A DNA stretch of 64,000 nucleotides from the NCBI GenBank assembly GCA_024405635.1, contig JAKSOL010000004.1, positions 32,001 through 96,000 of the forward strand, given 5' to 3'. Below the pieces are notes generated by a model. That model searched no databases. It saw only the letters and a program-made list of their open reading frames with translations, and was not told where the DNA came from. Origin of the DNA: Salinivirgaceae bacterium (GTDB taxonomy: Bacteria > Bacteroidota > Bacteroidia > Bacteroidales > SZUA-534). The stretch's first letter is position 1. Each line of letters starts with the position of its first letter. The position numbers were made by a program, and so were the translations under genes. Below, in pieces: positions 14,683 to 45,200 of this stretch.

Positions 14683-14688
14683 ACCCGT

Positions 14689-15807: not shown

Positions 15808-15810
15808 AGT

Positions 15811-16686
15811 ATGAGCAGGATTTCATTTAGGTTTTATAAAGACCATGAGGTAAGAGCTGTGTGGGATGCCATAACTGACAGATGGTTTTTCTCTGTCCTT
15901 GATGTGCTTGGTGCTATCAATGAGCAGGATGATTATACCAAGACAAGAAACTATTGGAAATATCTCAAAACCAAGTTGAAGAAGGAGCAGAATGAAGTGG
16001 TTAGTGCCACTAACCAGTTGAAACTTCTTGCTCCAGATGGTAAGAAAAGACTTACTGACACCCTTGATATGAAGGGCATTGAAGAACTTGCCAAGAACAT
16101 CCCCAATAGCAAGGCAATGGAGTTTCTTGACTGGCTTACATATAGTGAGAATACACTTGATGGCAAGAGTAAGCAAAAGGCTTATGAACTCTGGGAAAGT
16201 GGAATATTGGAAACCATTGAAGTTGGAACTGTCAAGGGGCTTCAGCAGATACACGCCTACATCTTTGCAGGCTTGTACGACTTTGCTGGTCAGGTTAGAA
16301 CAAAGACAATTTCTAAGGGTGGTTTTACCTTCTGCTTGGCACAATACCTGCCACAGCAATTAGGCATTATTGAAAAGATGCCAGAAGCAAGCATAGATGA
16401 CATCTTCGATAAGTATGTAGAGATGAATGTGGCCCACCCCTTCATGGAGGGTAATGGCAGAAGCACCAGAATATGGCTTGACCTCATGTTGAAAGCAAGA
16501 GCAGACAAATGTGTTGACTGGAGTCAGATAAACAAGAACGACTATCTGCAAGCCATGACACAGAGTGTTGCAGATGCTACTTTCATCAAGCAGTTGCTTG
16601 CCAATGCTCTCACTGACAACATCAATGACAGAGAACTCTTCATGAAGGGCATTGATTACTCTTATTATTATGAACAGGAGGATTAA
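15811..16686 (+). CDS. Fic adenylyltransferase (NmFic/class III-like) with BRO-like N-terminal domain (fic2)
   Basis: Canonical HPFMEGNGRSTR; C-terminal SYYYE autoinhibitory-type motif; N-terminal VRAVWD..WFFSVLDV..RNYWKYLK. Confidence 0.87.
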   Translation: MSRISFRFYKDHEVRAVWDAITDRWFFSVLDVLGAINEQDDYTKTRNYWKYLKTKLKKEQNEVVSATNQLKLLAPDGKKRLTDTLDMKGIEELAKNIPNSKAMEFLDWLTYSENTLDGKSKQKAYELWESGILETIEVGTVKGLQQIHAYIFAGLYDFAGQVRTKTISKGGFTFCLAQYLPQQLGIIEKMPEASIDDIFDKYVEMNVAHPFMEGNGRSTRIWLDLMLKARADKCVDWSQINKNDYLQAMTQSVADATFIKQLLANALTDNINDRELFMKGIDYSYYYEQED

Positions 16687-16689
16687 GGT

Positions 16690-17796: not shown

Positions 17797-17802
17797 CCGC
17801 AC

Positions 17803-18903
17803 ATGGGTGATAATAAACCGAAATACATTGAAGGCGTGGGTTGGCGGTATGAGACGGTGCATAGCCAGAAACGACGCATGAAATCCCATCACTATAATGA
17901 GGTGGGCACATATCTCGTCACCGTCGTAGTGGAGGGGCGTAAGCCTGTCTTCGGGCATATCGCCGGCAACATTAAGGCATCACCTACTGCACCCGATTAT
18001 CCAGTCACTGTATTATCGCCGCTAGGCGAGAATCTGCTCCACGAGCAGCTTCCGAAGATACACGCTGTTTACCCGATGGTGGACGTGTGGCGCCTGTGTG
18101 TCATGCCCGACCATCTGCATATCATCATCCGCATCAACGCCACCTTGCCACCGAAGAAACACCTGGGCACCATCATAGGCGCTTTCAAGGGCGGCATAAG
18201 TCGAGCATGGGGAGGCGGCACTCTCTTCGAAGATAACTACAACGATCGCATCCTTATGCGCGATGGGCAGTTGGAGAACTGGAAGGCATACCTCGACGCT
18301 AATCCTTATCGCTGGCTCGTCAGGCATTCACGCCCAGAGCTGATGCAGAGAGCGCTGTGCCTCGTCATCAACGGTGTCAGGTATGGAGCCTTCGGTAATT
18401 TCATGCTGCTCAGGCACCCCGAGAAGGTGCAGGTCTTCTTTCACCGGAAGATGGTGGATGACAGGCTGACGCCTGACATACAGGGACCGCAAGCCACGAC
18501 GAGCATACAGGGGCAAGCCACGATGAGCGTATGGAGGCAGAAGATACCCACCGAGCAGACGCTTTTTTGGCAGAAGGAACACGCGAGGTTGATAGAGATG
18601 GCGGAGCAAGGCGATGTGATGGTGACACCAGGCATCAGTGAATGCGAGAAGCGAATAAAGAACGAGTGCCTCCAGCAGCACCATAGGATCATACACCTAC
18701 AGGCGGAGCCTATCGGCAGTTATTGGAAGCCAGAGCGCAGCCGTTTTGAGGCTTGCACAGCCGGTAGCCTCCTCATACTTGCTCCATGGGCGGAGGATCT
18801 GGAGGGAGACACCGACTATGACCGCTTTCATAATCTTAACACCCTCGCTGCGAGCATCTGCCAGCTGAATGTGCAGGCTGCTATGCAGATAACAACAGGC
18901 TGA
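17803..18903 (+). mobile_element. REP-associated tyrosine transposase (RAYT, Y1/IS200-like) with extra C-terminal domain
   Basis: YLVT, VMPDHLH (HUH), YNDRI..YLDANP (catalytic Tyr); GC- and CpG-rich relative to flanking hsd genes; REP-like hairpins inside and downstream. Confidence 0.75.
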
Positions 18904-18960
18904 CGCCTGCCGCACAGGGACCGCAAACCACGGCACAGGGGCTGCAAACCGCCCCTATGT
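18895..18960. repeat. REP-like hairpin cluster (second copy at 18461-18530)
   Basis: CAGGC-TGAC-GCCTG and AGGGGC-N8-GCCCCT hairpins; 38-bp unit matches 18461-18498 at 34/38. Confidence 0.7.
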
Positions 18961-19011
18961 CAATGGCGTTAGCTTTTGATGATACCAACAAGAACAACAA
19001 AACAACAAACT

Positions 19012-22000
19012 ATGGCACAATACAATATCATAGCAGAGCAAGAAGAATATACTGTAGTCAGTGAGTATGAAGCAGAGTATGGCAGACCAGACAAGTATCA
19101 GTCAGAGGCTATGCTTGAAAAGGACTTCATCAAGGCACTCACAGAACAAGGCTATGAATACCTTCCTATTCATGAGGAAAAAGACCTTGTGGATAACCTC
19201 AGAGTTCAGCTGCAGAAACTGAACAACTACACATTTACTGATGGTGAATGGGAAAGATTTTTCAGAGAGAACCTTGCCAATAAGAATGATGATATTGTAG
19301 CCAAGACCACCAAGATACAAGAGGATTATATCCAAGTCCTAAAATGTGATAGTGGTGAAAGCAAGAACATCTACCTCATAGACAAGAAGAACATCCACAA
19401 CAATTACCTGCAAGTCATCAACCAATATGAAGAAGGTGGTGGTGTCCATGACACAAGATATGATGTCAGCATATTGGTGAATGGTCTGCCATTGGTTCAT
19501 GTGGAACTGAAAAGAAGGGGTGTTCAACTAAAAGAGGCTTTCAACCAGATAAACAGATATCAAAGAGATAGTTTCTGGGCTGGCTGTGGATTGTATGAGT
19601 ATGTGCAGATTTTCATTATCAGCAATGGCACAAACACCAAGTATTACAGCAATACCACCAGAGCCAACCACTTGAAGGAGCAACAGCAAGGTTCGGCAAA
19701 GCTCACCAACCGGAAGAAGACGAGCAACTCATTTGAGTTTTCATCATTCTGGACTGACAGCAACAACAAGGCTATCCTTGACCTCATAGACTTTACCAAG
19801 ACCTTCCTCTGCAAGCATACACTGCTGAATGTGCTGACCAAGTATTGTGTCTTTACAACAGAGAGGATGCTGATGGTGATGAGGCCTTATCAGATAGCAG
19901 CCACAGAAAGAATTATACAGAGGATAAACATAGCCAACAACTATAAGCAGTGGGGTAAGATTGAAGGTGGTGGCTACATTTGGCACACCACTGGCTCTGG
20001 TAAGACATTGACCTCATTCAAGACTGCTCAACTGGCATCAAGACTGGACTACATAGACAAGGTGCTGTTTGTGGTAGATAGAAAAGACCTGGACTACCAG
20101 ACTATGAAGGAGTATAACAGATTTGAGGAAGGTGCTGCTGACAGCAATTCTTCAACATCTGTATTACAGAGGCAGTTGGAGAACAAGGACAAGAATGGGG
20201 CTTACCACAACTATAAGATTATTATTACCACCATACAGAAACTCTCCATCTTTGTGCAGAAGAACAAGGGGCATGAGATTTTCCAGAAAAGGGTTGTCAT
20301 TATCTTTGATGAATGTCATAGAAGCAACTTTGGCGAAATGCATACAGCCATCACCAAGAACTTCAAGAAGTATCATCTGTTTGGTTTTACTGGCACACCT
20401 ATCTTTGCACAGAATGCTCCTTCGACAGGCTCAGGAACCGCCATGAAGACAACACAGCAAGCCTTTGGTGACAAACTGCATACTTACACCATTGTTGATG
20501 CCATAAATGATGAGAATGTCCTTCCATTCAGAATAGACTATGTGAACACATTGAAGCAGAAGGAGGACATCAAGGATAAGCAGATTTCAGCCATTGACAG
20601 AGAAAGGATTATGTCTGCTCCAGAGAGGGTTGAAGAAGTGGTGAAGTATATTCTTGAACACTTTGACCAGAAGACAAAGAGAAGTTCCTACTACTCATTC
20701 AGAACAACACAGAACATTGGTGAAGTGGCAAGTGCTGGTAAGGGCAAGGAAATTAAGGAAAAGAAACTGGCACAGAAGTTGGCTGGTTTCAATGCTATGT
20801 TTGCTGTGGCATCCATCCCAATGGCAAAGGCTTACTACAATGAGTTCAAGAAACAACAAGCCTCACTGCCAGAAGCCCAGAGATTGAAGGTAGCCACTAT
20901 CTATTCCTATGGAGCAAATGAAGAAGAAGTTGATGGTATTTTGGCAGAAGAAAATCCAGAGAGCACAACAAGCCTTGACCAGCAGTCAAGAGATTTCCTT
21001 GAAGGTGCTATCAAGGATTACAACCAGATGTTCAATACCAACTATGACACCAGCAATGACAAGTTCCAGAACTACTACAAGGATTTGTCATTGAGAATGA
21101 AGAACAGACAGGTTGATTTGCTGATTGTGGTGAATATGTTCCTTACTGGCTTTGATGCTACTACACTGAACACTCTGTTTGTAGATAAGAACCTCAAACA
21201 GCATGGATTGATACAAGGTTATAGCAGAACCAACAGAATATTGAACTCCATAAAGACCTTTGGCAATATAGTCTGTTTCCGCAACCTTCAACAAGAAACC
21301 GACGATGCTATCGCTCTCTTTGGCGACAAAGACGCAAGCAGTATAGTCCTTTTAAAAGACTTTAAATCCTACTACAACGGATACGACACCGCGAAGGGCA
21401 AGCACTGCTATGGATATGTCGAATTAGTGGAGCAGCTGAAGCAGGAGTTCCCTGACGGCAGACCCACTATGGGTGAGCAAGAAGAAAGAAGGTTCATCAG
21501 TCTGTTTGGTAGTCTGTTGAAATCTATAAATGTGCTTCAAGCCTTTGACCAGTTTGAAGGAAAGGAACTGCTCACTGATGGTCAGATGCAGGACTATCAG
21601 AGCCATTACCTTGATTTGAGGGATAAGTGGAGAAAGAGAACTCATGCAGACAAGGAGGTTGTGAATGATGACCTTATCTTTGAAACAGAACTCATAAGAC
21701 AAGTAGAAATCAACATTGACTACATCCTCATGTTGGTGAAGCAGTATCATGACAGCAACTGCAAGAACAAGGAACTGCTGGTGAACATCAGCAAGGCAAT
21801 AGGTGCAAGTATGAACCTCAGAAGTAAGAAGGAACTTATTGAAAGTTTTATTGCAACAATCAACAGTGGCGTGGATGTGAATGGAGCGTGGGAGGAATAT
21901 GTGAAGCTTAAAAAGCAAGAGGAACTAAACACCATAATACAAGAAGAGAAGTTGAAGGCGACCGAGACCAAGAAGTTTGTTGAGAACGCCTTCCGCGACG

Positions 22001-22143
22001 GACAACTGCGAACCACAGGAACCGACATAGACAAGATACTGCCTGCAATGTCTCGCTTTGGTGGAGGCGGAGACAGGAGTCAGAAGAAGACGTCTGTTAT
22101 TCAAAGATTGAAGGATTTCTTTGAGAAATACTTTGGACTGTAA
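19012..22143 (+). CDS. hsdR: Type I R-M restriction subunit (EcoR124-like)
   Basis: RYDV..LVNGLPLVHVELK nuclease motif, QINRY, HTTGSGKT, DECH, FTGTP, MFLTGFD; probable ATG 19012. Confidence 0.95.
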   Translation: MAQYNIIAEQEEYTVVSEYEAEYGRPDKYQSEAMLEKDFIKALTEQGYEYLPIHEEKDLVDNLRVQLQKLNNYTFTDGEWERFFRENLANKNDDIVAKTTKIQEDYIQVLKCDSGESKNIYLIDKKNIHNNYLQVINQYEEGGGVHDTRYDVSILVNGLPLVHVELKRRGVQLKEAFNQINRYQRDSFWAGCGLYEYVQIFIISNGTNTKYYSNTTRANHLKEQQQGSAKLTNRKKTSNSFEFSSFWTDSNNKAILDLIDFTKTFLCKHTLLNVLTKYCVFTTERMLMVMRPYQIAATERIIQRINIANNYKQWGKIEGGGYIWHTTGSGKTLTSFKTAQLASRLDYIDKVLFVVDRKDLDYQTMKEYNRFEEGAADSNSSTSVLQRQLENKDKNGAYHNYKIIITTIQKLSIFVQKNKGHEIFQKRVVIIFDECHRSNFGEMHTAITKNFKKYHLFGFTGTPIFAQNAPSTGSGTAMKTTQQAFGDKLHTYTIVDAINDENVLPFRIDYVNTLKQKEDIKDKQISAIDRERIMSAPERVEEVVKYILEHFDQKTKRSSYYSFRTTQNIGEVASAGKGKEIKEKKLAQKLAGFNAMFAVASIPMAKAYYNEFKKQQASLPEAQRLKVATIYSYGANEEEVDGILAEENPESTTSLDQQSRDFLEGAIKDYNQMFNTNYDTSNDKFQNYYKDLSLRMKNRQVDLLIVVNMFLTGFDATTLNTLFVDKNLKQHGLIQGYSRTNRILNSIKTFGNIVCFRNLQQETDDAIALFGDKDASSIVLLKDFKSYYNGYDTAKGKHCYGYVELVEQLKQEFPDGRPTMGEQEERRFISLFGSLLKSINVLQAFDQFEGKELLTDGQMQDYQSHYLDLRDKWRKRTHADKEVVNDDLIFETELIRQVEINIDYILMLVKQYHDSNCKNKELLVNISKAIGASMNLRSKKELIESFIATINSGVDVNGAWEEYVKLKKQEELNTIIQEEKLKATETKKFVENAFRDGQLRTTGTDIDKILPAMSRFGGGGDRSQKKTSVIQRLKDFFEKYFGL

Positions 22144-30062: not shown

Positions 30063-30088
30063 TTGTTTATGTAGTTTTTCTACATTTG
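30063..30088 (+). promoter_or_regulatory. Candidate promoter upstream of the YhcG array
   Basis: TACATTTG at 30081-30088 (Bacteroidetes -7 consensus), ~50 bp upstream of the first repeat core. Confidence 0.5.
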
Positions 30089-30120
30089 TAACAATTGTGC
30101 AACGTAATTTGATACTTATA

Positions 30121-30181
30121 CAAAACCAGAAATAGATTTTTAAACTAACATATTATTAATCACAGCGTTTGCTTATTATTC
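30121..30181 (+). repeat. Array direct repeat copy 1
   Basis: Core AAACTAACATATTATTAATCACAGCGTTTGCT 30142-30173. Confidence 0.9.
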
Positions 30182-30191
30182 GGATAGCCTA

Positions 30192-31316
30192 ATGAATTTC
30201 GACATATTAGTACATAAGATTTCAGTAGTTGAACAAGTTATGCTAAATGAAGTTGTTCATGCTATTAATGTGTCATTAACAGTGCGAAATTGGATATTAG
30301 GCTATTACATTGTAGAATTTGAGCAAAACGGCGAAGACAGAGCTGCTTACGGCCAAAATCTTTTGAAAAATCTTGAACAAAGATTACAGAAAAAGGGATT
30401 GACGGAAAGACGCTTTAGGGAGTTTCGGAAATTTTATTTGACCTATCCTCTATTAGAGTCAGAAATAAGATTGTACGTCGGAACAAATCTAAATCATGAG
30501 ATTCGGCAGATAGCATCCGCCGAATTGGATAGCCTTGGAAATCAAGATGATATGATCCGGCGGACGGCATCCGCCGAATTGGAACAATGGCAAACTGATC
30601 CACACAAAATCTTGTATAAAATTCCTTTTTCGCATTTGTTGATTTTGTGCAAGATTGAAGATCCTTTGAAAAGAGCTTTTTATGAAAGCGAAATCATAAA
30701 AGGATGTTGGTCGTGCTCTGAACTTGAAAGACAAGTAAACTCGCTTTATTTTGAGAGAACCGGATTATCGAAAGACAAAAACAGACTTTCTGAGATTGTC
30801 AATCAAAAGTCAGTTTCTCTACGCCCCAAAGACATAGTGAAGAATCCTCTGACGCTTGAGTTTCTAGGTTTGCAGGAGTCAAATGTTGTTATGGAAAATG
30901 ATTTAGAGAATGCTATTATAAATCATTTGCAGCATTTCCTTCTCGAACTGGGTGACGGATTCTGTTATGAAGCAACTCAAAAACGAATTCTTATCGACGA
31001 CGAATACTTTAAGATAGACTTGGTATTTTACCATCGTATTTTGCATTGCCACGTTTTGGTAGAGTTGAAGACGGATAAGTTTAGGCATGAATATGCTTCG
31101 CAGTTGAACTTGTACCTGAATTATTACAAGAACGAAATTATGCAATCTTCCGACAATCCTCCTATAGGATTGTTGTTGTGTACTGATTACGGTGAAACAA
31201 CTGTACAGTATGCAACCGCAGGATTAGATGAAAACTTGTTTGTTTCAAAATATTTGGTAAAGTTGCCGAGTGTAGATGAAATAAAGAAGTATATTATTGA
31301 AATAAATAAACGGTAA
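30192..31316 (+). CDS. YhcG/DUF1016 PD-(D/E)XK nuclease family protein 1
   Basis: WILGYYIVEFEQNGEDRAAYG, IDLVFYHRILHCHVLVELK, QLNLY, DNPPIGLLLC. Confidence 0.92.
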   Translation: MNFDILVHKISVVEQVMLNEVVHAINVSLTVRNWILGYYIVEFEQNGEDRAAYGQNLLKNLEQRLQKKGLTERRFREFRKFYLTYPLLESEIRLYVGTNLNHEIRQIASAELDSLGNQDDMIRRTASAELEQWQTDPHKILYKIPFSHLLILCKIEDPLKRAFYESEIIKGCWSCSELERQVNSLYFERTGLSKDKNRLSEIVNQKSVSLRPKDIVKNPLTLEFLGLQESNVVMENDLENAIINHLQHFLLELGDGFCYEATQKRILIDDEYFKIDLVFYHRILHCHVLVELKTDKFRHEYASQLNLYLNYYKNEIMQSSDNPPIGLLLCTDYGETTVQYATAGLDENLFVSKYLVKLPSVDEIKKYIIEINKR

Positions 31317-31325
31317 AACGATATA

Positions 31326-31379
31326 CAAGAAATAAATTTAAACTAACATGATTATTAATCATAGCGTTTGCTGATATTC
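31326..31379 (+). repeat. Array direct repeat copy 2
   Basis: Core AAACTAACATGATTATTAATCATAGCGTTTGCT 31340-31372. Confidence 0.9.
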
Positions 31380-31391
31380 TGAAATCATTAC

Positions 31392-32420
31392 ATGGATAAG
31401 AAACCACAAATACAAGATTCTCGTTACGATGCTCTAGTAAAGCAAATCTCGGAGTTAGTTGCATTATCGAAGCAAAAGGCTATGCATGCAGTTAATTCTG
31501 CCTTGGTGGAGATGAATTGGAATATTGGAAAATATATTGTGGAGTTTGAACAGAACGGTAACGCAAGGGCGGAATATGGTGCAAAACTGATACCTCAGCT
31601 TTCAAGAGACTTGACGCTTCTATTAGGAAACGGTTATTCAAAAAGTAACTTGGCAAATATGAGGCTGTTATATCTTCGATTTCCAATTTTCCAAGCAGTG
31701 CTTGGAAAATTAAGCTGGACTCAATTGCTTGAAATCATTCCAATAGATAATGAGTTAGAAAGGAATTTCTATACTATTGAAGCTATAAATAGAAATTGGA
31801 GTTACAGACAAATACACGAACAAAAAACTCGTGGCCTTTTTTATCAGTTGGCAACATCAAAAGAGGCATGTGATATTCTTTCTCTTTCCAATAATGGATT
31901 ACAGATAACACAACCAAAGGATGTAGTCAAGGATACTTATTTCTTTGATTTCCTAAGTCTCAAGACTCCCGATTATAGCGAAGGAGATTTAGAAGATGCT
32001 CTTATCAAGCACATGGAAGATTTCCTTCTGGAGTTAGGTAAAGGATTTGCTTTTATTGGTCGCCAGTATCGGTTGACCATAGACAATGACGACTATTATG
32101 CCGACCTTGTATTTTATCATGTCATACTTAAATGCTATGTGATCATTGATTTAAAACGTGGTAAAGTAAAGCATGAGGATATTGGGCAGATGAATATGTA
32201 TTTGGGTTATTTTGCGATGGACAAGAATACAGAAGGAGACAATCCTCCCATTGGCATTATCCTTGCTGCCGACAAAAACGATGTGATGGTGCAATATGCC
32301 ACATACGGCATGGATGCTAATTTATTCGTCGCAAAATATCAACTCTATTTGCCAGAAATTAACGAATTAAAAAGGCTGGTTCAAGCAGAACTTGACAGAC
32401 TTAACAATAAAACTGAATAA
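31392..32420 (+). CDS. YhcG/DUF1016 PD-(D/E)XK nuclease family protein 2
   Basis: WNIGKYIVEFEQ, LSWTQ, ELGKGFAFIGRQ, DLVFYH..IDLK, GQMNMY, DNPPIGI. Confidence 0.93.
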   Translation: MDKKPQIQDSRYDALVKQISELVALSKQKAMHAVNSALVEMNWNIGKYIVEFEQNGNARAEYGAKLIPQLSRDLTLLLGNGYSKSNLANMRLLYLRFPIFQAVLGKLSWTQLLEIIPIDNELERNFYTIEAINRNWSYRQIHEQKTRGLFYQLATSKEACDILSLSNNGLQITQPKDVVKDTYFFDFLSLKTPDYSEGDLEDALIKHMEDFLLELGKGFAFIGRQYRLTIDNDDYYADLVFYHVILKCYVIIDLKRGKVKHEDIGQMNMYLGYFAMDKNTEGDNPPIGIILAADKNDVMVQYATYGMDANLFVAKYQLYLPEINELKRLVQAELDRLNNKTE

Positions 32421-32436
32421 TACTTTAATAGATAAT

Positions 32437-32500
32437 AAAACAGAAAAATAGATTTTTAAAACTAACATAGTATTAATCATAGCGTTTGCTATTTATTCGG
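32437..32500 (+). repeat. Array direct repeat copy 3
   Basis: Core AAACTAACATAGTATTAATCATAGCGTTTGCT 32459-32490. Confidence 0.9.
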
Positions 32501-32875
32501 ATGAATACGGAGAACTATAAAATACAAAATATCGATGATTATGCTGAGTTGCTTAAGCAAGTCAAGCATCGCATTGGTCTTGCCCAAAAAAGAGCCATCT
32601 ATTCTGCGAATGGAGAGATGTTGCACATGTATTGGGATATAGGGAAACTCCTTCAGAATAAAATAGATGAAGCAAATTGGGGAGATAAACTGTTAGAGAG
32701 ACTCTCCATTGATTTAAAAAACGAGTATCCAACAGTAAAAGGGTTTACAACACGTAACTGCCGATATATGATGCAGTTTTATCGTGAATATAATCAAGAA
32801 CTTACATTTGTGAAACTGCCCGTTTCACAAATTGAAGGTTCGAATGAAAATGTGAAACCAATCATTTTAAATTAA
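32501..32875 (+). pseudogene. Truncated YhcG/DUF1016 gene 3 (N-terminal domain only)
   Basis: MYWDIGK, WGDKLLERLSIDLK, GFTTRNCRYMMQFY; stops before LSW motif and nuclease domain; ATG 32501. Confidence 0.8.
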
Positions 32876-32888
32876 ATAAGTAGTTTTA

Positions 32889-32939
32889 CAAAACAGAAAT
32901 AAATTTTAAACTAAAATATTATTAATCATAGCGTTTGCT
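32889..32939 (+). repeat. Array direct repeat copy 4
   Basis: Core AAACTAAAATATTATTAATCATAGCGTTTGCT 32908-32939. Confidence 0.9.
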
Positions 32940-32949
32940 GCAATTTGAG

Positions 32950-33981
32950 ATGAAAGAAAAAAAAGACATAATACATATTCCTGTTGACACATCCTTTCTT
33001 GCGGAGGTGAAAAACATTGTTGAGCAAGGTCGCCAACAAGCATACGCTTCTGTAAGTCAACTGATGATTGAAACTTATTGGAAGATAGGTGAACGTATTG
33101 TGTTACAAGAACAGAAAGGTAAAGACCGTGCAGATTACGGTACGCAACTCATTGAAGTGCTTTCAGAAGAATTGACCCGAACTTACGGGAAAGGATTCAG
33201 TAAAAGAAATCTCCAGTATTTTCGTGCGTTTTATTTGAGTTTCAATGATTTAGAAATTGTGCACACGCGTGTGCACAATTTATCTTGGTCACACATACGA
33301 ACTGTTTTACGAGTGGATGACATAACAGCGGCTCGTTGGTATTTGTTAACCGCCTCCCAAGAAATGTGGAGTGTGCGAACACTTGATAGAAATATTTCTA
33401 CACAATATTATGAACGTCATTTTAAGCAACCACAAATAGTAGAAAATACCCAAGAGGTGGTTGCACCCAACAAGTTGGAACTTCTGAAAAGTCCAATTGT
33501 TGCAGAATTTTTAGGATTCAAGAAAGATGACAGTTATAGCGAATCCGATATTGAAAGTGCCATTATCTCTCATTTGCAGGAGTTCATCATGGAAATGGGA
33601 CGTGGCTTTGCATTTATGGGTCGTCAAGAGATGATAAGAACAGCAAATAACGACTATTTCATTGATTTGGTATTCTATAATGTTGTGCTGAAATGTTATG
33701 TGCTTATTGATTTGAAAATAGGAAAGATTACCCATCAGGATGTTGGTCAGATGGATATGTACGTAAGAATGTATGATGACCTGAAACGTACTGAAGGCGA
33801 TAATCCTACAATAGGAATAGTATTATGCAGTGAAACTGATGCTGATATTGCGAAATACTCTATTCTTAAGGGTAACGAGCAACTGTTTGCTTCAAAATAC
33901 AAACTTTATTTACCTACGGAGCAGGAACTTCGCAGGGAAATAGAGGCTCAAAAAGAATTGTTCAACTTACAAAATAACTGA
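32950..33981 (+). CDS. YhcG/DUF1016 PD-(D/E)XK nuclease family protein 4
   Basis: YWKIGERIV, GFSKRNL, LSWSH, EMGRGFAF, IDLVFYN..IDLK, GQMDMY, DNPTIGI; ATG 32950. Confidence 0.93.
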   Translation: MKEKKDIIHIPVDTSFLAEVKNIVEQGRQQAYASVSQLMIETYWKIGERIVLQEQKGKDRADYGTQLIEVLSEELTRTYGKGFSKRNLQYFRAFYLSFNDLEIVHTRVHNLSWSHIRTVLRVDDITAARWYLLTASQEMWSVRTLDRNISTQYYERHFKQPQIVENTQEVVAPNKLELLKSPIVAEFLGFKKDDSYSESDIESAIISHLQEFIMEMGRGFAFMGRQEMIRTANNDYFIDLVFYNVVLKCYVLIDLKIGKITHQDVGQMDMYVRMYDDLKRTEGDNPTIGIVLCSETDADIAKYSILKGNEQLFASKYKLYLPTEQELRREIEAQKELFNLQNN

Positions 33982-33983
33982 AA

Positions 33984-34039
33984 AAAACAAAAATAATTTT
34001 AGACTAACATATTAATTAACAAGCGTTTGCTTATTATTC
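33984..34039 (+). repeat. Array direct repeat copy 5 (most diverged core)
   Basis: Core AGACTAACATATTAATTAACAAGCGTTTGCT 34001-34031; shares TTATTATTC tail with copy 1. Confidence 0.85.
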
Positions 34040-34043
34040 TAAA

Positions 34044-34209
34044 ACGTCCTTAAAACTTGGCGGTTTGAAGATGTAATTGGGGAATAATAAAGCAGGTGCT
34101 CACGTGTATACGTGGGTACTTGATTTATCTCTAATTACGGGTTCCGCCAAGTACCCAAGGACGTGGATAAATTGAGTATCCACGTTTTTTATTAGGTACT
34201 TGGCGGAAC
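34044..34209 (+). ncRNA. Putative structured leader RNA/attenuator upstream of the R-M-like genes
   Basis: Nested and mutually exclusive stems with G-U pairs; terminator-like hairpin 34161-34190. Confidence 0.55.
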
Positions 34210-34256
34210 AGAAGGTTTTATTACTAATATGCTAACGCGTTAGTAATAAAACAATT

Positions 34257-35294
34257 ATGACTAGCGCTGACATTATTGGCGTTGTAGATATTAGTGAAGA
34301 TGAAATCAAAAATTGGATTCCAGATTTATTAAATGTTCTACTGCGCGATCATTCTGCAAAACATGATGCTAAAATCGGGTCAAGCAATCCAGATGAACAT
34401 CATATCATTTGGGCGACTGATAGTTACGAGACTCTCGGTAATTGCTACAACAAACGTGCTCAAATTAGAGCTGAACTTATAACTGGCAAAAACGGACGAG
34501 TAATCCGCCCGCGTGCTGTAAAAACAAAAGTTGAGCAGCAAACTCGTACACGCAACAAAGCCGAGGTTTTTACGCCATCATGGGTTTGTAATGCCCAAAA
34601 CAATTTAATTGATAACGAATGGTTTGGTCGCATTGGAGTTTTCAATACGGAAAATAACGACAAAACCTGGACCACTAATCCGGAAAAAATAACCTTTCCA
34701 GAGGGTAAAACATGGATTGACTATGTAAAAGATTGCCGCCTTGAGATAACATGTGGCGAAGCTCCTTACTTAGTTAGTCGATATGATACCGTAACGGGCG
34801 AATATATTCCAGTTGAGAAACGAATAGGCCTACTTGACCGTAAGTTGCGAGTGGTGAACGAAAACACCTCTACGCCCGACGAATGGGTACCTTATGCTCA
34901 TTTGGCACTAGCATCTGTTTATGGCTACGAGTGGCAAGGCGATAGTTTGCTATTGGCCCGGGAGGCTGCGCTATGCACATTCATGGACCATTTTTGGCAA
35001 AAATTCCCCAACGAAAATCTATTTGACAAAACCATTATCAAGTCAGCTTATATCATAAGCTGGAACTTGTGGCAAATGGATGGCCTAAAAGGAAAAATCC
35101 CTTATTCTGAAAAAGTAGTTATTAACACAGACCTTTATGGTTCAGAAGAAAAAACCATAGAAGAAGGAGTTTACTGCGAGATTCTCTCATGGAAGTTAGA
35201 GCCTAATAAAAAAGGCATACTCAATTTAAGAAAGGACAAAAAAAGTCAATTTTTCTCTACAAGTCTTTGTCTCTCAAAAAAATACAAAAAATAA
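34257..35294 (+). CDS. MTase-like accessory subunit (SAM-binding half, no NPPY), partner of Eco57I-like fusion
   Basis: KAEVFTPSW (motif X-like), LEITCGEAPYL (motif I-like), YGYEWQGD, WQMDGL; no motif IV seen. Confidence 0.7.
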   Translation: MTSADIIGVVDISEDEIKNWIPDLLNVLLRDHSAKHDAKIGSSNPDEHHIIWATDSYETLGNCYNKRAQIRAELITGKNGRVIRPRAVKTKVEQQTRTRNKAEVFTPSWVCNAQNNLIDNEWFGRIGVFNTENNDKTWTTNPEKITFPEGKTWIDYVKDCRLEITCGEAPYLVSRYDTVTGEYIPVEKRIGLLDRKLRVVNENTSTPDEWVPYAHLALASVYGYEWQGDSLLLAREAALCTFMDHFWQKFPNENLFDKTIIKSAYIISWNLWQMDGLKGKIPYSEKVVINTDLYGSEEKTIEEGVYCEILSWKLEPNKKGILNLRKDKKSQFFSTSLCLSKKYKK

Positions 35295-35316: not shown

Positions 35317-38300
35317 ATGGCAAGTATTGAATTTGAAAATGTTAGTAGTTGGCATATCATTTATTTATACACAATAGATGATGAGCAACATAAAGATCTT
35401 GTTAAGGTTGGAAAAACAAGTACCAACGAACTAGACCCAACCGATGACGACATAAAAAATGCAGCAATTGTCTGTATTCGGGGTCAGTTGAGCCGAGCAG
35501 GCATGTCATACAAAGATTTTTATGCAGAAAAGGCAATTTGTAGAGACAAAGATGGTAGTATAATAAACTTTTGGGACTACGATGTTCATGATGTTCTTGA
35601 ACGCTCAGGAATAAAAAACAAAAAGTTCAAAGGAAGTTCAGGCCGAGAGTGGTACGAGTGTTCAATGGAAACTGCCAAGGCCGCAATTAAAGCAGTAAAA
35701 GAAGGCAGACAATCGTTAAATGACAACGAAATCCGTGCTGACGTTAAACCAATTGTGTTTCGCGAGGAACAGCGTCGAGCAATTGATCAAACAAAGAAGG
35801 CTTTCGTAAATCACCAAGAAATGCTTTGGAACGCAAAAATGCGGTTCGGAAAAACTGTGTCAGCCTTGCAAGTGGTAAAAGAAATGAAATTCAACCGCAC
35901 ACTTATTGTTACTCATCGTCCTGTGGTTATTGATGGCTGGTTTAAGGACTTTGGTTGGATTTTTCACGACTGCACAAATTTTCAGTTCGGTTCAAAAAAA
36001 GATTATGGCTCTGACTACAATAAATGCGAAAGCGATTTGAAGAAAAAAGGAATCAATTATGTTTTTTTCGCATCAATACAAGACTTGCGCGGTTCGGATA
36101 AAGTTGGTGGTAATTATGAAAAAAATACCGAATTGTTCAGCACCAAATGGGATTTGCTAATAGTTGATGAAGCTCACGAAGGAACTTTAACCGCATTGGG
36201 TGATAATGTGTTGAGCGAATTGATAAAAACTAAAACCAAAGTGCTGAAACTCAGCGGTACTCCATATAATCTTATTGACAAATTCGACAAAGAGGCAACA
36301 TTTACGTGGGATTATGTGATGGAGCAACGCGCTAAAGTAAATTGGGAAAACGAACATCATGGAGAACCCAACCCTTACGCGTGTTTGCCTTCAATGTGTA
36401 TTTACACTTACGACTTGCCTGCGCTTATGAATCCTTCAATTGAAGCAGATAGCATGTCGTTTAATTTTCGCGAATTTTTCAAAACCGATGGAGACTTTGA
36501 CGATAAGTTTGTTCATGAGGATTCGGTAAAAGCCTTTCTTGATTTGTTGGTTGAAAATGATGCAAATAGTACTTATCCTTTTTGCACTGACCGCTTCATA
36601 AATACTTTCCGCCATACGCTTTGGATGCTGCCAGGTGTTAAAGCCGCTAAGGCAATGAGTAAGTTGTTAAAGAGTCATAAAACATTTAACCAATACGAGA
36701 TTTTAAACGTGGCTGGTAACGGTGACGAAGACGAAGAAAATGAAGAAGCATTGCAAAAGGTAAAAAATGCTATAGGCAACAATCCTCTTACATCAAAAAC
36801 CATCACTTTGTCATGTGGCCGTTTAACAACTGGTGTAAGTGTTCCTGCGTGGACAGGTGTCCTTATGCTTGCAGGTACAGCAACCACTTCGGCAAGCGGT
36901 TATATGCAAACTATTTTCCGAGTGCAAACACCTTGCAACCTTGGCGGAATGCAAAAAGAACAATGCTTTGTGTTTGACTTTGCGCCCGACCGTACACTAC
37001 AAGTACTTGCTGACGTAGCTCATATTGAAAGTGTAGGTAAAGGAACTACCGAGAGTCAACGCCAAACTTTAACCCAATTCCTAAACTTTTGCCCTGTTAT
37101 TTCGCTTAACGGATCTACTATGCAAGAGTACAATGTTGACTCCTTGTTTACCAAACTTAAACGTGTATTCATAGAACGCGTTGTTCAAAGCGGATTTGAG
37201 GACGAACACATTTTCAACCAAAAATCGTTGCAAGGATTAAGCGGCTCCGAACTTAAAATGTTTGATAAACTACATTCAATTATCGGCTCAACCAAGGCAA
37301 TGCCAAAAACCAAAAACATTGACATTAATAAAAAGGGATTAACAGAAGAAGAACAAGAACTTGTTAGTGAAATAGAAAATAAAAAACGTGGCGGGAAAAA
37401 ACTTACTAAAGAAGAACAAGAACTACTTGAACGCCATAAAGCCGAACTTGAACAGATGCATGCGGCTGCAAGCATTTTGCGAGGAATTGCAATACGAATG
37501 CCGTTAATGATTTTTGGTGCTAATGTGAAAGAAGGAGAAGAAGAAAAGGAATTTACCATTGATAATTTTGACAATTTGGTTGACGATGAATCGTGGAAAG
37601 AGTTTATGCCAAAAGACGTAAGTAAAAAGCTATTCCGCGATTTTAAAAAATACTTTGACAAAGACATTTTTACAGCAGCCAGCCGCCGCATTCGTGAATT
37701 AACAAAGGAGGCCGACTCTATGAGCATTGAAGAACGTATGGAACAAATCCATACAATCTTTAACTATTTCCGTAATCCAGATAAAGAAACAGTTCTTACT
37801 CCGCCACGAGTGGTAAATATGCACATGAGCAATACTTTGGGTGGATATTGTTTCTACGACGAAGATTTTGAAGAAATGCTTACGAAGGACCCTTGTTTTG
37901 TTAACCACAGCGAAGTAACAAAACAAGTTTTTTCAGCTCAAAGCCAAATTCTAGAAATAAACTCAAAAAGCGGACTATATCCGCTATATGCCGCATACTC
38001 AATATATAGGAGCCGTTGCTCAATAGCTCGCGAGAAAAACCAAAAACTTACACTCGCTCAGCAACAAACAATTTGGGACACTGTGCTTGCCGAAAACATT
38101 TTTGTGTTGTGCAAAATACCAATGGCAGAGTTCATTACAAAACGTACACTTGGCGGATTTCGCAAAGTGGCATTCAATGTGGCTTATTATAAAAATTTGC
38201 TCGTTGAGATTAAAAATTCACCCGATAAATTGATTAAAGCCCTTTCTAACTCAAAAACTTACAAATCAGCTAAAAACAATTCTAATATGATATTTGATGC

Positions 38301-39324
38301 AATTATAGGAAACCCTCCATATCAAGAAAACGATGGTAGTGGCGCTGCTGGTGATGCCGCTATGCCGATATATAACAAATTTGTTGACTTAGCTCTATTG
38401 TTAAAACCTACATATATTACAATCATTATGCCGTCAAAGTGGATGATTGGTGGTAGAGGTTTGGATAAATTCCGAACAAGTATGGTTGAGGACCATCATT
38501 TAGCTAAGTTTTTTGACTATGAAGACGACTCCTACATTTTCCCTAATACACACATAGATGGCGGTATTTGTTATTTCTTATGGGATAAAAAGCATAATGA
38601 CAAAATGCAATATTCATATCGTACTAAAGATGGTGATGTTATTAATACTGTCAGATTCTTGAACAATGACACTTCATCTTTTATCATTCGTGATTTTAGG
38701 CGTCAATCAATTATTGAGAAAGTCACTAAAAGAGCGTCTTTTAAAGAAATTGTATCATCATCGCGTCCATTCGGAATTAGAAAAGATCTGTTTAATTCTC
38801 CAGAACGCTATCCTGATTCTAGACTTTCAGAAAAAATGTTTGAAAACGCAATTCAAATTCATGGAGTAAAAGGAGTAAAGGGCGGAGCTAGAAGACAATT
38901 AGGTTTTATTAATTCAAGTGTAATAACACAAAATGTACAATGGATACCTCTTTATAAATTGTTCTTTACGACCACTTATTCTACAGGTGCTATTAATTTT
39001 CCTGAAATCATAGTTGCAGATTCGAATGTTGTATGTACAGAGACCTTTTTGGTTATAGGTCCATTTAATACGAAACTCGAACAGCAAAATTGTTTGAAGT
39101 ATACCAAAACTAGTTTCTTCAAAACACTATTGTTTTTTGGTAAGGGATCAATGCAAGTAACACAAGAAGTTTTTTGTTATGTTCCTCTCCAAGATTTTAC
39201 CTCAAATAGTGATATTGATTGGAGTCTAAGTGTTGAGGAAATTGACAATCAACTATATAAAAAGTACAACCTTACAAATGATGAAATTGCGTTTATAGAT
39301 GTTTTGATAAATCCAAAGGAGTAA
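35317..39324 (+). CDS. Fused nuclease (T5orf172/GIY-YIG-like)-SF2 helicase-N6 adenine MTase-TRD R-M enzyme (Eco57I-domain/ISP-like)
   Basis: IYLY..VKVGKT..REWY N-terminus; NAKMRFGKT, DEAH, LSGTP, QTIFRVQ; IIGNPPYQ; C-terminal TRD-like region ending VPLQDF. Confidence 0.82.
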   Translation: MASIEFENVSSWHIIYLYTIDDEQHKDLVKVGKTSTNELDPTDDDIKNAAIVCIRGQLSRAGMSYKDFYAEKAICRDKDGSIINFWDYDVHDVLERSGIKNKKFKGSSGREWYECSMETAKAAIKAVKEGRQSLNDNEIRADVKPIVFREEQRRAIDQTKKAFVNHQEMLWNAKMRFGKTVSALQVVKEMKFNRTLIVTHRPVVIDGWFKDFGWIFHDCTNFQFGSKKDYGSDYNKCESDLKKKGINYVFFASIQDLRGSDKVGGNYEKNTELFSTKWDLLIVDEAHEGTLTALGDNVLSELIKTKTKVLKLSGTPYNLIDKFDKEATFTWDYVMEQRAKVNWENEHHGEPNPYACLPSMCIYTYDLPALMNPSIEADSMSFNFREFFKTDGDFDDKFVHEDSVKAFLDLLVENDANSTYPFCTDRFINTFRHTLWMLPGVKAAKAMSKLLKSHKTFNQYEILNVAGNGDEDEENEEALQKVKNAIGNNPLTSKTITLSCGRLTTGVSVPAWTGVLMLAGTATTSASGYMQTIFRVQTPCNLGGMQKEQCFVFDFAPDRTLQVLADVAHIESVGKGTTESQRQTLTQFLNFCPVISLNGSTMQEYNVDSLFTKLKRVFIERVVQSGFEDEHIFNQKSLQGLSGSELKMFDKLHSIIGSTKAMPKTKNIDINKKGLTEEEQELVSEIENKKRGGKKLTKEEQELLERHKAELEQMHAAASILRGIAIRMPLMIFGANVKEGEEEKEFTIDNFDNLVDDESWKEFMPKDVSKKLFRDFKKYFDKDIFTAASRRIRELTKEADSMSIEERMEQIHTIFNYFRNPDKETVLTPPRVVNMHMSNTLGGYCFYDEDFEEMLTKDPCFVNHSEVTKQVFSAQSQILEINSKSGLYPLYAAYSIYRSRCSIAREKNQKLTLAQQQTIWDTVLAENIFVLCKIPMAEFITKRTLGGFRKVAFNVAYYKNLLVEIKNSPDKLIKALSNSKTYKSAKNNSNMIFDAIIGNPPYQENDGSGAAGDAAMPIYNKFVDLALLLKPTYITIIMPSKWMIGGRGLDKFRTSMVEDHHLAKFFDYEDDSYIFPNTHIDGGICYFLWDKKHNDKMQYSYRTKDGDVINTVRFLNNDTSSFIIRDFRRQSIIEKVTKRASFKEIVSSSRPFGIRKDLFNSPERYPDSRLSEKMFENAIQIHGVKGVKGGARRQLGFINSSVITQNVQWIPLYKLFFTTTYSTGAINFPEIIVADSNVVCTETFLVIGPFNTKLEQQNCLKYTKTSFFKTLLFFGKGSMQVTQEVFCYVPLQDFTSNSDIDWSLSVEEIDNQLYKKYNLTNDEIAFIDVLINPKE

Positions 39325-39346: not shown

Positions 39347-39377
39347 AAAAGCCTCCGTCACCAACGGAGGCTTTTTT
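39347..39377. terminator. Intrinsic terminator at right end of island 2
   Basis: AAAAGCCTCCGT-CACCA-ACGGAGGCTTTTTT perfect 12-bp stem. Confidence 0.85.
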
Positions 39378-39533
39378 GTTGTTTTTCCACATCCTAAAAC
39401 TTTCCTACTGAAAACTTTTGCGCATTTTGGTCAAAAGTTTAAAGTACAGGCGAAAACTATTTGCTTGGTGTGGAATAACGTTTTGGCAATGCGTTAGTTA
39501 GGATTGAATATTTTCAAAACGCTGGAATTTGTT

Positions 39534-42255: not shown

Positions 42256-45200
42256 TTACTGTTTTACTACGTTAACCGATTGATTGCCAACCATAATCAG
42301 GTAAGCGCCTTGTGGCAAAGCCGAAAGGTCAATTTGCATGTTGTTGTCAACGGTTTGTTGCAATAGCAGTTGGCCGTTGGCGTCAAACACTTTTATGCTT
42401 TGTCCAGCTTCAATGTTGCCGCCACGTATGGTCACTAGGTTAAGCGTTGGGTTTGGATAAGCGGTTAGTTCAATGGTAGGTCCAAAATCCATGCTGCACG
42501 AGTAATAAGTTTGACCGTCTTTGTTGGTAGCAATAAGGTAGTAGGTGCCAGATAGTCCGCCTACCTCGTTGTAGTAAGCATTGGTGCAAACTTGCTTGTC
42601 GTTGTGCATCCACACGTAGTTATTAAACTGATGTTCAACATCGACAATAGAAACAACGTCGTCCCACATTTTTCTGATAAAGCGTTTGCGAACTTGGTAG
42701 TCAATTTGTTTGGTCAAATGGCTTGAACCAAGTTGGGCGGTTATGCCAATCACACCTTGAGCCGATGCGGAGTCGGGTATGGTGTAAGTGATTCCGTTTT
42801 GGCTGTTGTCGGCAGTTCCGTTTATGGTGTAACTGTAGTTAACGTTGTATAAGGCGCTCGATTTGGTTACTGAAATTTCAAGATCGTCGTCGTTTTCGCA
42901 AGTTACAAACGGATTAGGAGCATCAAAATCGATAAGCGCTTTAATGTCGGTAATGTTTTTGTCGGCAATGCCGTCGCCATCGGTGTCGATGTTGAGGTCG
43001 GGGTTGCCGTCGCCGTCAATGTCGCAGTTAAGGTTGCAAATGCCGTCGTCGGTAAAGTCAACGTTTATTTCGGTGTTCTGTTGCCAAGTAGCAACAAATG
43101 TCAAATTGTGGCTTGGCATTGTGCCAAAGTTGGTAACTAATGTGCCGTTATCGGTTGCCCAACCAGTGAATTTAAATCCAGCTTGGGTTGGAGTGTATGC
43201 AACAATTGGCTCGCCAAACAAAATGCTGTCAACTTTTGAAGTGGTTTCGGTTTCGGCCCAAGTAATGGCGTATTTGTTTTTGTTCCACAAACCAAAGAAT
43301 TCAACAGTGTCGGTAGCAGAGCCAAAGTCGGAAATGGCAACGTTGCTGTTTTGTGAGTTAGACCAACCTGCAAATGAGTAACCGTCGAGCGAAGGATTGG
43401 CGGGAGCTACAATAGGTTCGCCGCGCATCAGTTCAACGGTTGTGGTAATGTCGCCGTTGTTTGGAGTCCAGCTAATAAGCAAATGATTTTCGGTCCAAAG
43501 AGCAAACAAAGTATCGCCAAGTTCGGTCATGGTACCAAATTGGGTTTCAGCATCACCATCGGCAGCATGGCTCCAACCTGCAAAGGTGAATCCATATCGG
43601 CTTGGGTTGGTGGCAGGAGCAACAATTTCGTCGCCAAAATTGAGCGACTTGCTGAAGAATACGCTATCGGTGCCGTCGTTCATCAACCAAACGCTAGCAT
43701 ATTGTTTAACCGACCATATAGCGGTAAACGAAATGTCGTTGGCGGGCATTGTGTTAACCTCGGGAGCCCATGTGTAGTCAAAACCATCGCGCAAAAGAGT
43801 AGGAGCAACAATGGGGCTTTGGTACATGGCTGAGGTGTGAGTGTAAGGCATGTTTAGGTTTATAATGCCATCGCCAATGTTCCAAGTAACGGAGTATGAG
43901 TTTCGGCTATAGAAAACATCTTGCACCGATGAGCCGTCGCCAGCAATGGTTCCAGCCTCAAAAGCGTTAAGAGTAAAGCCGGTGTAGTTATTAGGAATAA
44001 CCTCCATAAGGTCGCCTGTTTTACCGGTGTTGGTAGTTGATTCGGCAAGAGTGTAAGAGCCGTCAAGTTCTTGAGTAAAGTGGCGAACGGTGTAGATTAT
44101 ACCATCGCTTGCCTCCCAAACAACGGTGTAGGTAGCATCGGAGTTAGGCATAGTGGCTGGCACTTGTGGCGACCATGTGTAAGTGAAACCATTGCGGTTT
44201 AATGTTGGAGCAACAAGAGGAGTTCCGTAGTAAACCAATCCATCTTCGGTGTAAGCTGATGCTTCAACCAAGCCTTGAGTAGTAATCCAAGCAAGTGAGT
44301 GTTGGTTGCGAGCGTAGTCGATGCGAACAACTGTTGAGCCATCGCCGTTTATGGTGCTTTGGCTGAAGTTTGCGGTAAAACCAACGGTGTCTTTAGCCAC
44401 TGCAACTGTAGCAGCATCGGCTAAACCCGAAAGAGTTTGAGAGTAAGTGGCGGTTGCGGGATAAGTGCCATCAAGTTGCATAAAGTAATGCTCAACGGTG
44501 TAGTTGGTTGCGCCTGCAGTCCAAACAGCGTTGTAGGTTAGCGCGTTGGCAGGCATTGTGGTAGCAGGTGTTGCGTCCCAAGAGTAACTATATCCAGCCT
44601 TGTAAAGTTGAGGTGCTGTGATGCTAGCGCCATAAACCACCGAACCGCTGGTGTAGCTGTTGGTTGCTGTTCCTCCGTTAAGATTCCAAGTTAAATCGTA
44701 ACTATTGCGGTTGTAGAAAATGTCAATGTCGTTGTTGGCATTGGCGGTAATGGTTTTTTGGCTGAAGGTTTGGCTTGTGAAACCAGTGTACGATTTTGCC
44801 TCGGCAGCAGTAGGAGCATCGGTTTTGCCGCTCAACTGTTGTGTGCTTGATGCGTCAACAGTATAGGTGCCATCAATATTTTGAAGGTTGTGGCGCACAG
44901 TGTAAAGGTTGTCGTTAGCCACCCAAACCGAAGTGAAGGTGGTGTTGGTAGCCGGCATGTTGGATATCACGTTGTCCCACGATCCTGTGTATCCAGCACG
45001 AACAAGCGTAGGAGCGGTAATAGGCGCATCAAAGTAGATGCTGCCAGCAGCAGTGTATGAACCAGTTGCAGAACCTCCGTTGGTAATGTTCCAAGTTAGG
45101 GTGTATTGGTTGCGAGTGTAGTTGATGGTTATTACAGTGCCACCGTTGCCGTTAATAGTGCTTTGGCTTATGCTTTGAGCAGTAAATCCTTCGTATGTTT

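Follow-up and report, generated by a model that had tools for sequence, protein, structure and literature searches.

A promoter-like module repeated ahead of stacked YhcG cassettes and restriction-modification operons in Bacteroidales

In a 64,000-nucleotide (nt) stretch of the genome of a Salinivirgaceae bacterium (assembly GCA_024405635.1, contig JAKSOL010000004.1, positions 32,001 to 96,000 of the forward strand; hereafter the window), an element of about 55 nt recurs five times in the same orientation, ahead of three complete genes and one gene fragment of the YhcG/DUF1016 nuclease family and ahead of a restriction-modification (R-M) operon. This array is best read as a stack of defence cassettes that are exchanged horizontally and that each begin with a copy of a promoter-like module; the module is clade-wide and, in its full form, comprises a new structured leader located 5' of R-M operons. 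We favour, with a probability of about 0.62, the view that the repeat acts as a portable 5' module for expression, most probably a promoter and perhaps with an operator, and that the cassettes are shuffled by recombination between its copies. A Xer- or integron-type mechanism, as proposed in an earlier interpretation made from the letters of the window (the sequence-only reading), is not supported.

Reading the region directly, we found the five copies that the sequence-only reading had reported, with cores at 30142, 31340, 32459, 32908 and 34001; they extend over 30120-30173, 31322-31372, 32436-32490, 32885-32939 and 33977-34031, all on the forward (+) strand, and a repeat search of the window grouped copies 1-4 into one 51-nt repeat family. 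The blocks A.ACTAA.AT and AGCGTTTGCT are invariant in the five-copy alignment, and copy 1 consists of an AT-rich upstream part, the AACATATTATTAATCA block and AGCGTTTGCT, after which comes the 5' untranslated region (UTR) TATTATTCGGATAGCCTA. A 32-nt consensus with up to 3 mismatches matched 3 times against 0.00 expected, and the exact 18-nt sequence TTAATCAYAGCGTTTGCT matched 4 times against 0.23 expected, a count that none of 100 shuffles reached. From the GCT end of the element to the ATG of the next YhcG gene there are 18 nt for copy 1 (ATG at 30192), 19 nt for copy 2 (ATG at 31392) and 10 nt for copies 3 and 4 (ATGs at 32501 and 32950), matching the 10-19 nt noted before, and the GCT end of copy 5, at 34031, is followed by a 225-nt non-coding leader of an operon for a methyltransferase and a Type IIG R-M enzyme. 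The variation in core length pointed out in the sequence-only reading is also real: copy 2 has one extra base in its middle block and copy 5 is one base shorter, with a variant core, TTAATTAACA-AGCG, of the type that precedes leaders in three other loci (L042, L071 and L014). The canonical TAnnTTTG box 5' of copy 1 (TACATTTG, 30081-30088, + strand), earlier likened to an integron Pc or a CRISPR leader, does exist; TANNTTTG, however, is found 71 times in the window (76.5 ± 7.5 expected), which is not above chance, and the box was not counted into the system.

The sequence-only reading had called for a search of the repeat consensus in this genome and across Bacteroidales metagenome-assembled genomes (MAGs). 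A profile built from the five copies (nhmmer) detected exactly two further copies in the 2.66-Mb genome, giving seven on three contigs, all of which point toward the next gene. One of the two (C23:141526, E 6e-12) lies behind guaA and is followed by a leader of ~190 nt, a gene for a 686-amino-acid (aa) N6 methyltransferase and an S-like gene; the other (C1:236924, E 2e-8) lies 31 nt 5' of a D12 (Dam-type) methyltransferase gene opening a four-gene cluster that, with its second (N6/N4) methyltransferase, we read as DpnII-like. Pattern searches found the element in 6 of 41 relatives and, within the family, in 12 of 33 genomes, these being 11 of the 16 genomes of a sister genus (g5) and the genome under study; none of the 16 genomes from six other genera of the family gave a match. 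It is also present in at least 137 stretches of public Bacteroidales genomes, mostly herbivore-gut MAGs, in a scan whose pattern required 22 of the ~30 conserved contiguous bases. Viral contigs gave no match to the element pattern and plasmids none to element plus leader; in phage records, only 68-70% matches within YhcG coding sequence appeared, on four unannotated faecal contigs.

Across the collected loci we gathered 157 unique instances of the element, 116 with a downstream open reading frame (ORF) and 41 without one (their loci being short). The GCT-to-ATG distance of the 116 is bimodal, with 1-25 nt in 34 and 178-238 nt in 63, the remainder falling at 73-160 nt (13 instances) or beyond (6). 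A manual tally of Pfam families was made for the 83 ORFs behind the element that lay outside the first 14 loci and were long enough to scan: 40 carry DNA methyltransferase domains (N6_N4, N6_Mtase/Eco57I/MmeI, D12, C5, Type III mod and HsdM), 17 are YhcG/DUF1016, 3 RhuM, 2 HSDR_N_2 only, 2 helicase/ResIII, 1 DarT, 2 HAD and 1 a generic S-adenosylmethionine methyltransferase, and 15 have no family. The 19 element-flanking ORFs of the relatives agree with this tally, and YhcG or RhuM often stands directly 5' of element, leader and methyltransferase. The element is not confined to YhcG genes, since it precedes methyltransferase operons of every R-M type across Bacteroidales, which counts against a Xer/dif- or integron-like capture site. 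In its general form the layout is a core gene, then zero to several units of element plus YhcG or RhuM, then the element with leader and R-M operon; arrays with ~1.1-kb spacing occur in other MAGs as well (e.g. L085, L086 and L105). At three g5 loci a pair of Acido-Lenti-1 RNA matches (RF01687), above the gathering score and on opposite strands, was seen ~200-350 nt 5' of the element (L005:1716-1898, L006:1137-1318 and L012:1135-1315).

The leader between copy 5 and the R-M operon (34032-34256, + strand) is identified as structured by its fold, family alignment, covariation and match to a covariance model, R1 (E 2.7e-9; see below). It comprises helix P3 with hairpin H (34093-34122), a terminator-like hairpin (34160-34186, T-run to 34190) and a further hairpin just 5' of the ATG, and its minimum free energy (MFE) is -95.3 kcal/mol compared to -48.2 ± 4.1 for shuffles (z -11.4). 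After removal of two outliers, 62 distinct leaders were available, of which 51 were aligned once near-duplicates had been dropped by eye. RNAalifold recovered hairpin H and its flanking helix; the full-length MAFFT alignment gave 14 pairs only, and the helix statistics come from a re-alignment of the leaders' first ~125 nt. In P3 and H together 91.4% of cells are paired, compared to 35-53% when the partner is slid, and 43 cells show a double change, compared to 13.7 ± 5.4 in shuffles (0 of 500 reach 43); P1, a helix that uses leader bases ~5-10, is paired in 87%. The leader thus has a conserved structure with covariation support. A crude terminator scan of 64 leaders placed a hairpin with T-run at leader positions 122-174 in 37, picked the upstream hairpin H in 20 and found none in 7. 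Competing long-range pairings were seen by eye and are weakly supported (C:D with z < -2 in 14 of 54 leaders, A:B in 7 of 54), C:D being absent from the window leader. No Rfam family matched any leader (cmscan, E ≤ 1, 11 loci including both leaders of this genome).

Model R1 was built from the leader alone, without the element, and matches in all 16 g5 genomes (2-11 copies each), in the genome under study (2 copies), in none of the 16 genomes of the six other genera and, across the order, in 24 of 151 sampled genomes at E ≤ 1e-6. We inspected the upstream sequence of 30 of the ~80 R1 matches, namely those supplied with loci, and found the element directly upstream in 28 and other sequence in 2. 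Among these 28, AGCGTTTG is nearly invariant and its spacing to the AACATATTATTAATCA block varies by -2, -1, 0 or +1 nt. This leader-based sample is a fair test of conservation, whereas the conservation of the middle block in the 137 stretches is partly circular, the scan pattern having demanded that block. Behind the 28 leaders from outside the genome under study, the first ORF encodes a DNA methyltransferase or Type IIG enzyme in 19, a DUF7149/DUF7814 protein in 1, a helicase in 1, DarT in 1 and a protein without family in 6. The two leader matches with different upstream sequence (TTTTGATTTAAAGACATATTGACATTAGTC..., loci L208 and L209 on G009:C11 and G045:C37) are followed by ORFs of 180-186 aa with no Pfam family; their upstream sequence may represent another type of promoter serving this leader.

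Promoters of the Bacteroidetes sigma-AB type have the consensus TTTG at -33 and TAnnTTTG at -7. The resemblance of AGCGTTTG to the -7 box is the part of the sequence-only reading that fits best: the conserved RNA begins immediately after the TTTG-containing box, placing it at the -7 position, and the first copies lie directly behind unrelated genes (guaA, thpR, a PFOR-like gene, a peptidase), with nothing conserved further 5' of them in the loci compared. For these two reasons a promoter is the best account of the element, and the spacing variation of -2 to +1 nt is likewise promoter-like and unlike a recombinase core. As in sigma-AB promoters, an invariant TTTG precedes by a few bases the point at which the conserved RNA, or the short 5' UTR, begins, and a T-rich stretch lies ~21 nt upstream; the element differs in that AG replaces TA in the -7 box and GCG is fixed where the consensus has nn, and its extra fixed block of ~16 nt suggests an added operator or another sigma factor. 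A promoter of the extracytoplasmic function (ECF) type (AAC-N16-CGT) was considered and dropped, the AAC-to-CGT distance of 14-17 in the leader-sampled copies being too loose.

On this promoter account, the fixed part would be AGCGTTTG(C), a variant of the -7 box, preceded by the AACATATTATTAATCA block and an A/T-rich stretch, and transcription would start a few bases after GCT. The module would head two types of unit. The first would be an R-M or other defence operon, in which the module is followed by a structured leader of ~185-260 nt with a putative terminator and then usually by a methyltransferase gene; the second would be a single-gene satellite cassette (YhcG or RhuM) that keeps only the leader's first ~10-15 nt before the ATG. 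The window would then hold four satellite cassettes, one of them decayed, stacked 5' of one R-M unit without terminators in between.

Alternatively, the element could act in RNA, being transcribed from upstream and marking cistrons for processing, antitermination or translation start, much as ops/put and the Bacteroides UpxY leaders act in antitermination. We regard this as improbable, though several observations suit it: a terminator scan of the window found no terminator-like site between the cassettes (only the terminator part of this promoter/terminator scan was taken, as sigma-70 is not applicable to Bacteroidetes), and transcripts reading through the array would be expected to include the inner copies; RNA-library contigs extend across the element; and conservation spans ~55 nt and continues into the start of the leader. 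However, with unrelated genes ahead of the first copies, a promoter must lie inside the conserved block, the internal spacing varies, and the RNA-library contigs may contain DNA and break at repeats. The capsular polysaccharide loci of Bacteroides, where related promoters and long 5' leaders are read by UpxY antiterminators, resemble the present system in that many variable operons of one genome share a promoter-plus-leader family, allowing common control. They differ in that here no inverted repeats surround the element, there is no sign of inversion and the cargo consists of R-M and other defence genes; no NusG-like gene was noticed beside the loci examined, in which no search aimed at NusG was made.

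The second part of the promoter account, shuffling of the cassettes, draws on comparison of their genes. YhcG1 (374 aa, 30192-31316), YhcG2 (342 aa, 31392-32420) and YhcG4 (343 aa, 32950-33981), all on the + strand, carry DUF1016_N and the YhcG_C nuclease domain of the PD-(D/E)XK type (Pfam E 1e-22 to 1e-59) and are PADLOC candidates of type PDC-S02. YhcG3' (32501-32875, + strand) is a 124-aa N-terminal fragment that matches only positions 1-92 of the 137 of DUF1016_N in Pfam, lacks the C-terminal nuclease domain and has related DNA in L032. The proteins are 26-39% identical to YhcG1, far below the likeness of the repeats, in line with the earlier remark on the closer similarity of the repeats. 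A tree of 29 full-length proteins (300-420 aa, non-identical, from 64 profile hits) puts YhcG1, YhcG2 and YhcG4 in three separate, strongly supported clades, and their nearest relatives are in other MAGs: 91% identical for YhcG1 (L042), 94% for YhcG2 (L086, from a MAG of Candidatus Colimorpha pelethequi) and 83% for YhcG4 (L039). The full-length paralogues thus form no locus-specific clade, and simple local tandem duplication, which the sequence-only reading had doubted, does not explain them. In the N-terminal domain of YhcG1 a 54-nt tandem duplication (30485-30583; 45-nt copies, 80% alike) lengthens the protein to 374 aa, a long form that is also present in L042 and L071.

When the window was compared with all collected loci by blastn, homology blocks started and stopped at elements. 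Such blocks cover 30161-32500 in L042 (90% identity), 30134-31379 in L071, about 31329-32500 in L074 and L086 (in L086 with 85% DNA identity over the YhcG2 region), 32849-34042 in L055, 32897-34069 in L039 and, from 32884/32890 to 33520, a truncated YhcG4-type fragment shared by L040 and L112. The latter two loci come from unrelated MAGs and hold the same 195-aa N-terminal fragment (L040:4658-5242 and L112:3536-4120) with the same end point and another element behind it; transfer may have spread one shared deletion, or the fragment may be a DUF1016_N protein that stands alone.

The junctions themselves are mosaic. In L042 the YhcG1-YhcG2 pair is followed directly by a leader and another Type IIG system. 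Up to 32453, within copy 3, this locus matches the window at each of the last 40 nt (40 of 40), and beyond that point its core is of the copy-5 type. A 733-nt RNA-library contig (X1) joins 32453 to 33997 and departs from the window at 1 of the 374 nt that it covers of YhcG2; this is weak evidence, since assemblies can mis-join at repeats. Behind orthologous YhcG1 genes the next core matches the downstream unit, and 5' of these genes the core types differ while the YhcG1-specific 5' UTR is kept; crossovers therefore fall on both sides of the core's variable middle. A spread of this kind suits homologous recombination or gene conversion more than it does one fixed crossover point. The cassettes would then be old, distinct YhcG lineages moving between genomes, the ~55 nt shared by all units would let recombination between copies bring in, remove or re-order units, and gene conversion among the copies would give mosaic cores; we infer the recombination step from the mosaic junctions, with homologous recombination as the simplest candidate.

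The repeats might instead be merely duplicated promoters kept alike by selection in a static array, with no role of the element in assembly. Conservation of the element across genera and families means that selection alone can account for repeats that resemble one another more closely than the genes do, and for the same reason the serial duplication of a site invoked by the sequence-only reading is not needed. A static array is nevertheless unlikely: besides the absence of a locus-specific clade, the genomes differ in which cassettes they hold and in their order, intact elements adjoin truncated cassettes (YhcG3' as well as loci L040, L042, L084, L086 and L112), and the 94% protein identity of YhcG2 to its Candidatus Colimorpha pelethequi counterpart goes with DNA identity that ends at elements. 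In the gene-capture array of the sequence-only reading, the cassette-like organisation accordingly stands, in that combinations differ between genomes and blocks end at elements, and the Xer/dif- or integron-like capture site is not supported.

Such a site, at which a recombinase of the integron or Xer kind or one acting in trans would insert cassettes one by one, is the least probable of the alternatives and, in our view, very unlikely. In its favour, cassette boundaries coincide with the element, two independent comparisons (L042 and X1) share the junction 32453/32454, and the islands have a defined 3' hairpin end (see below) that in relatives brackets a DUF4143 ATPase gene like a duplicated target. 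However, repeat searches and folds revealed no palindrome or inverted repeat within the element and no stable fold as single-stranded DNA (ssDNA) for any of the seven copies, whichever strand was folded (z +1.0 to -2.1 relative to mononucleotide shuffles, MFE -1.6 to -6.0 kcal/mol). The length of the element varies, its cores show mosaicism to either side of the variable middle, as scattered crossovers would leave them, it was not found on the viral contigs and plasmids searched, and it always precedes a gene or leader by a short, constant distance, whereas attC follows its cassette on the 3' side. The genome has four matches to PF00589, representing two full-length tyrosine recombinases (C5 and C36) and two fragments (C23 and C21); none is on the window contig (C31), in agreement with the earlier statement that no integrase adjoins the array, or on C1, and the match on C23 is 27 kb from the element copy there.

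The particular systems fare as follows. Integron arrays, which in their sedentary form are known to carry defence genes, likewise consist of co-oriented, unrelated single-gene cassettes, each bounded by a conserved repeat and varying in content between genomes; here, by contrast, no integrase is on the contig and no IntI-type recombinase is adjacent, the repeat is promoter-like, without an ssDNA-folding attC, and located at the 5' end of the next gene, and a copy heads each of the cassettes instead of one Pc serving them all, the box 5' of copy 1 being at chance level. The dif site has 28 bp, with two inverted 11-bp arms around a 6-bp spacer, and occurs once per replicon near the terminus. With dif and with integrative mobile elements exploiting Xer (IMEX) the element shares a short, AT-rich, conserved site and the lack of a dedicated recombinase nearby, but it has no two-arm palindrome, its length varies by -2 to +1 nt, and there are seven co-oriented copies on three contigs, tied to gene starts; the 8/11 match to the XerD arm remarked on in the sequence-only reading refers to the E. 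coli dif sequence. A comparison by eye with the consensus of the CTnDOT attachment site reached only TTTGC and was dropped.

The islands headed by the element share a 3' boundary motif. In the window it lies at 39405-39450 (+ strand; CTACTGAAAACTTTTG, with a degenerate second arm), and in the genome CTACTGAAAAYTTTT occurs four times, all at the 3' ends of the three element-headed islands: at 39405 of the window, at C23:145081 and, as two inverted copies making up a 16-bp hairpin, at C1:241646/241673 (C1:241646-241687). The motif is an AT-rich hairpin, CTACTGAAAAYTTTT...AAAARTTTTCAGTAG, whose distribution among genera equals that of the element (11 of 16 g5 genomes and the genome under study, 0 of 16 others). 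In the g5 genomes it is mostly located away from leaders, either alone between core genes or bracketing a gene for a 398-aa AAA_14/DUF4143 ATPase; two such hairpins follow the element-leader unit of L052, and further motif loci are L211, L214, L216 and L218. The hairpin could be the target or the end of some insertion process, and it leaves room for a site-specific component in island insertion.

Several observations weigh against a promoter module shuffled by recombination between its copies. All three islands end in the same rare hairpin, for which a pure promoter offers no explanation. The box reads AGnnTTTG and not TAnnTTTG, so that only its TTTG part agrees with the consensus, and at -33 the window copies have TTTA or TTTT (~21 nt upstream) and not the conserved TTTG; for these reasons the element is not a canonical sigma-AB promoter. 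The ~30 contiguous conserved bases exceed what a promoter needs, which is partly an ascertainment effect of the scan pattern. The four RNA-library runs are assembled Logan contigs, broken at the repeat, and give no start site; their ends pile up at 31337-31355 for the sole reason that the assembly graph breaks at the repeat. The L042 and X1 junctions coincide at a place where no more than ~5 nt are common to the recombined copies, which could hint at a specific crossover point. No empty site was found: G022, the sole genome of the family with the right-flank gene (87% identity), has unrelated DNA, free of the element, on the side that faces the island here, and scanning metagenomes with ThpR yielded no relative. 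Finally, the module is used by only 3 of the ~9 methyltransferase loci of the genome, and a fifth YhcG gene, on contig C7, lacks it.

This fifth YhcG gene is located directly 5' of a C5 methyltransferase gene and heads its operon (C7:7681-10109), and a YhcG fragment stands 5' of a C5 methyltransferase fragment at C4:70151-71497, also without the element; the two pairs indicate that linkage of YhcG to methyltransferases exists without the module. Between purH and tamB the window holds a Type I R-M operon (13117-22143), again without the element, with hsdM, two Fic/DOC genes, hsdS, an unknown 366-aa gene and hsdR; not all R-M loci here therefore use the module. The operon behind copy 5 encodes a Type II DNA methyltransferase of 345 aa (34257-35294, + strand; PADLOC MTase_II E 5.6e-100, no Pfam match) and a Type IIG restriction enzyme-methyltransferase of 1335 aa (35317-39324, + strand; T5orf172, ResIII and Eco57I domains by Pfam and PADLOC), and ends with a hairpin and T-run resembling an intrinsic terminator (39347-39375, + strand). 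Two giant ORFs are located 3' of the island, at 42256-52338 (- strand, 3360 aa) and 55408-63246 (+ strand, 2612 aa).

In the literature we found no description of the element, the leader, a leader structure of R-M operons or arrays of DUF1016 genes, and the leader RNA and the hairpin that ends the islands appear to be undescribed. The control modes listed in the accessible part of a 2025 review of R-M regulation (PMC12707154) are C proteins, promoter methylation, methyltransferase-repressor fusions and antisense RNA, and a word search of that part returned neither "riboswitch" nor "attenuat-". As in the systems covered there, control would sit 5' of the methyltransferase gene or operon; here, by contrast, one module of the host lineage is common to Type I, II, IIG and III systems and is joined to a structured leader with a putative terminator. 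DUF1016 and RhuM genes are described within R-M loci, enriched beside targets of programmed inversion, in the portion of PMC9881135 consulted. The present arrays share the position of such genes beside or inside R-M operons and differ in that up to four stand in tandem 5' of the operon, each with a copy of the operon's putative promoter.

Taken further, the module may belong to a lineage-wide platform for the expression of defence genes in gut Bacteroidales, a tentative proposal in four parts. A promoter/operator with a new class of structured, terminator-bearing leader RNA would put all R-M types, DarT and helicase systems under one signal, either a ligand or a protein; the same promoter minus the leader would drive satellite YhcG and RhuM cassettes; the repeated promoter would double as an exchange joint that needs no integrase; and the rare AT-rich hairpin would mark the 3' end of the islands. 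If the leader functions in this manner, it would be the first structured attenuator-type RNA reported 5' of R-M operons. The arrays would show how defence cassettes can be stacked and swapped through a repeated expression signal alone, as an alternative to integrons. The leader model and the 55-nt element are, in addition, good markers for unknown defence genes: no Pfam family was found for 15 of the 83 ORFs tallied behind the element or for 6 of the 28 that follow a leader. With a shared promoter/operator, all defence loci headed by the module could switch together; restriction systems and satellite nucleases would then form a regulon at host level in abundant bacteria of the herbivore gut, offering a handle on gene flow and phage resistance there.

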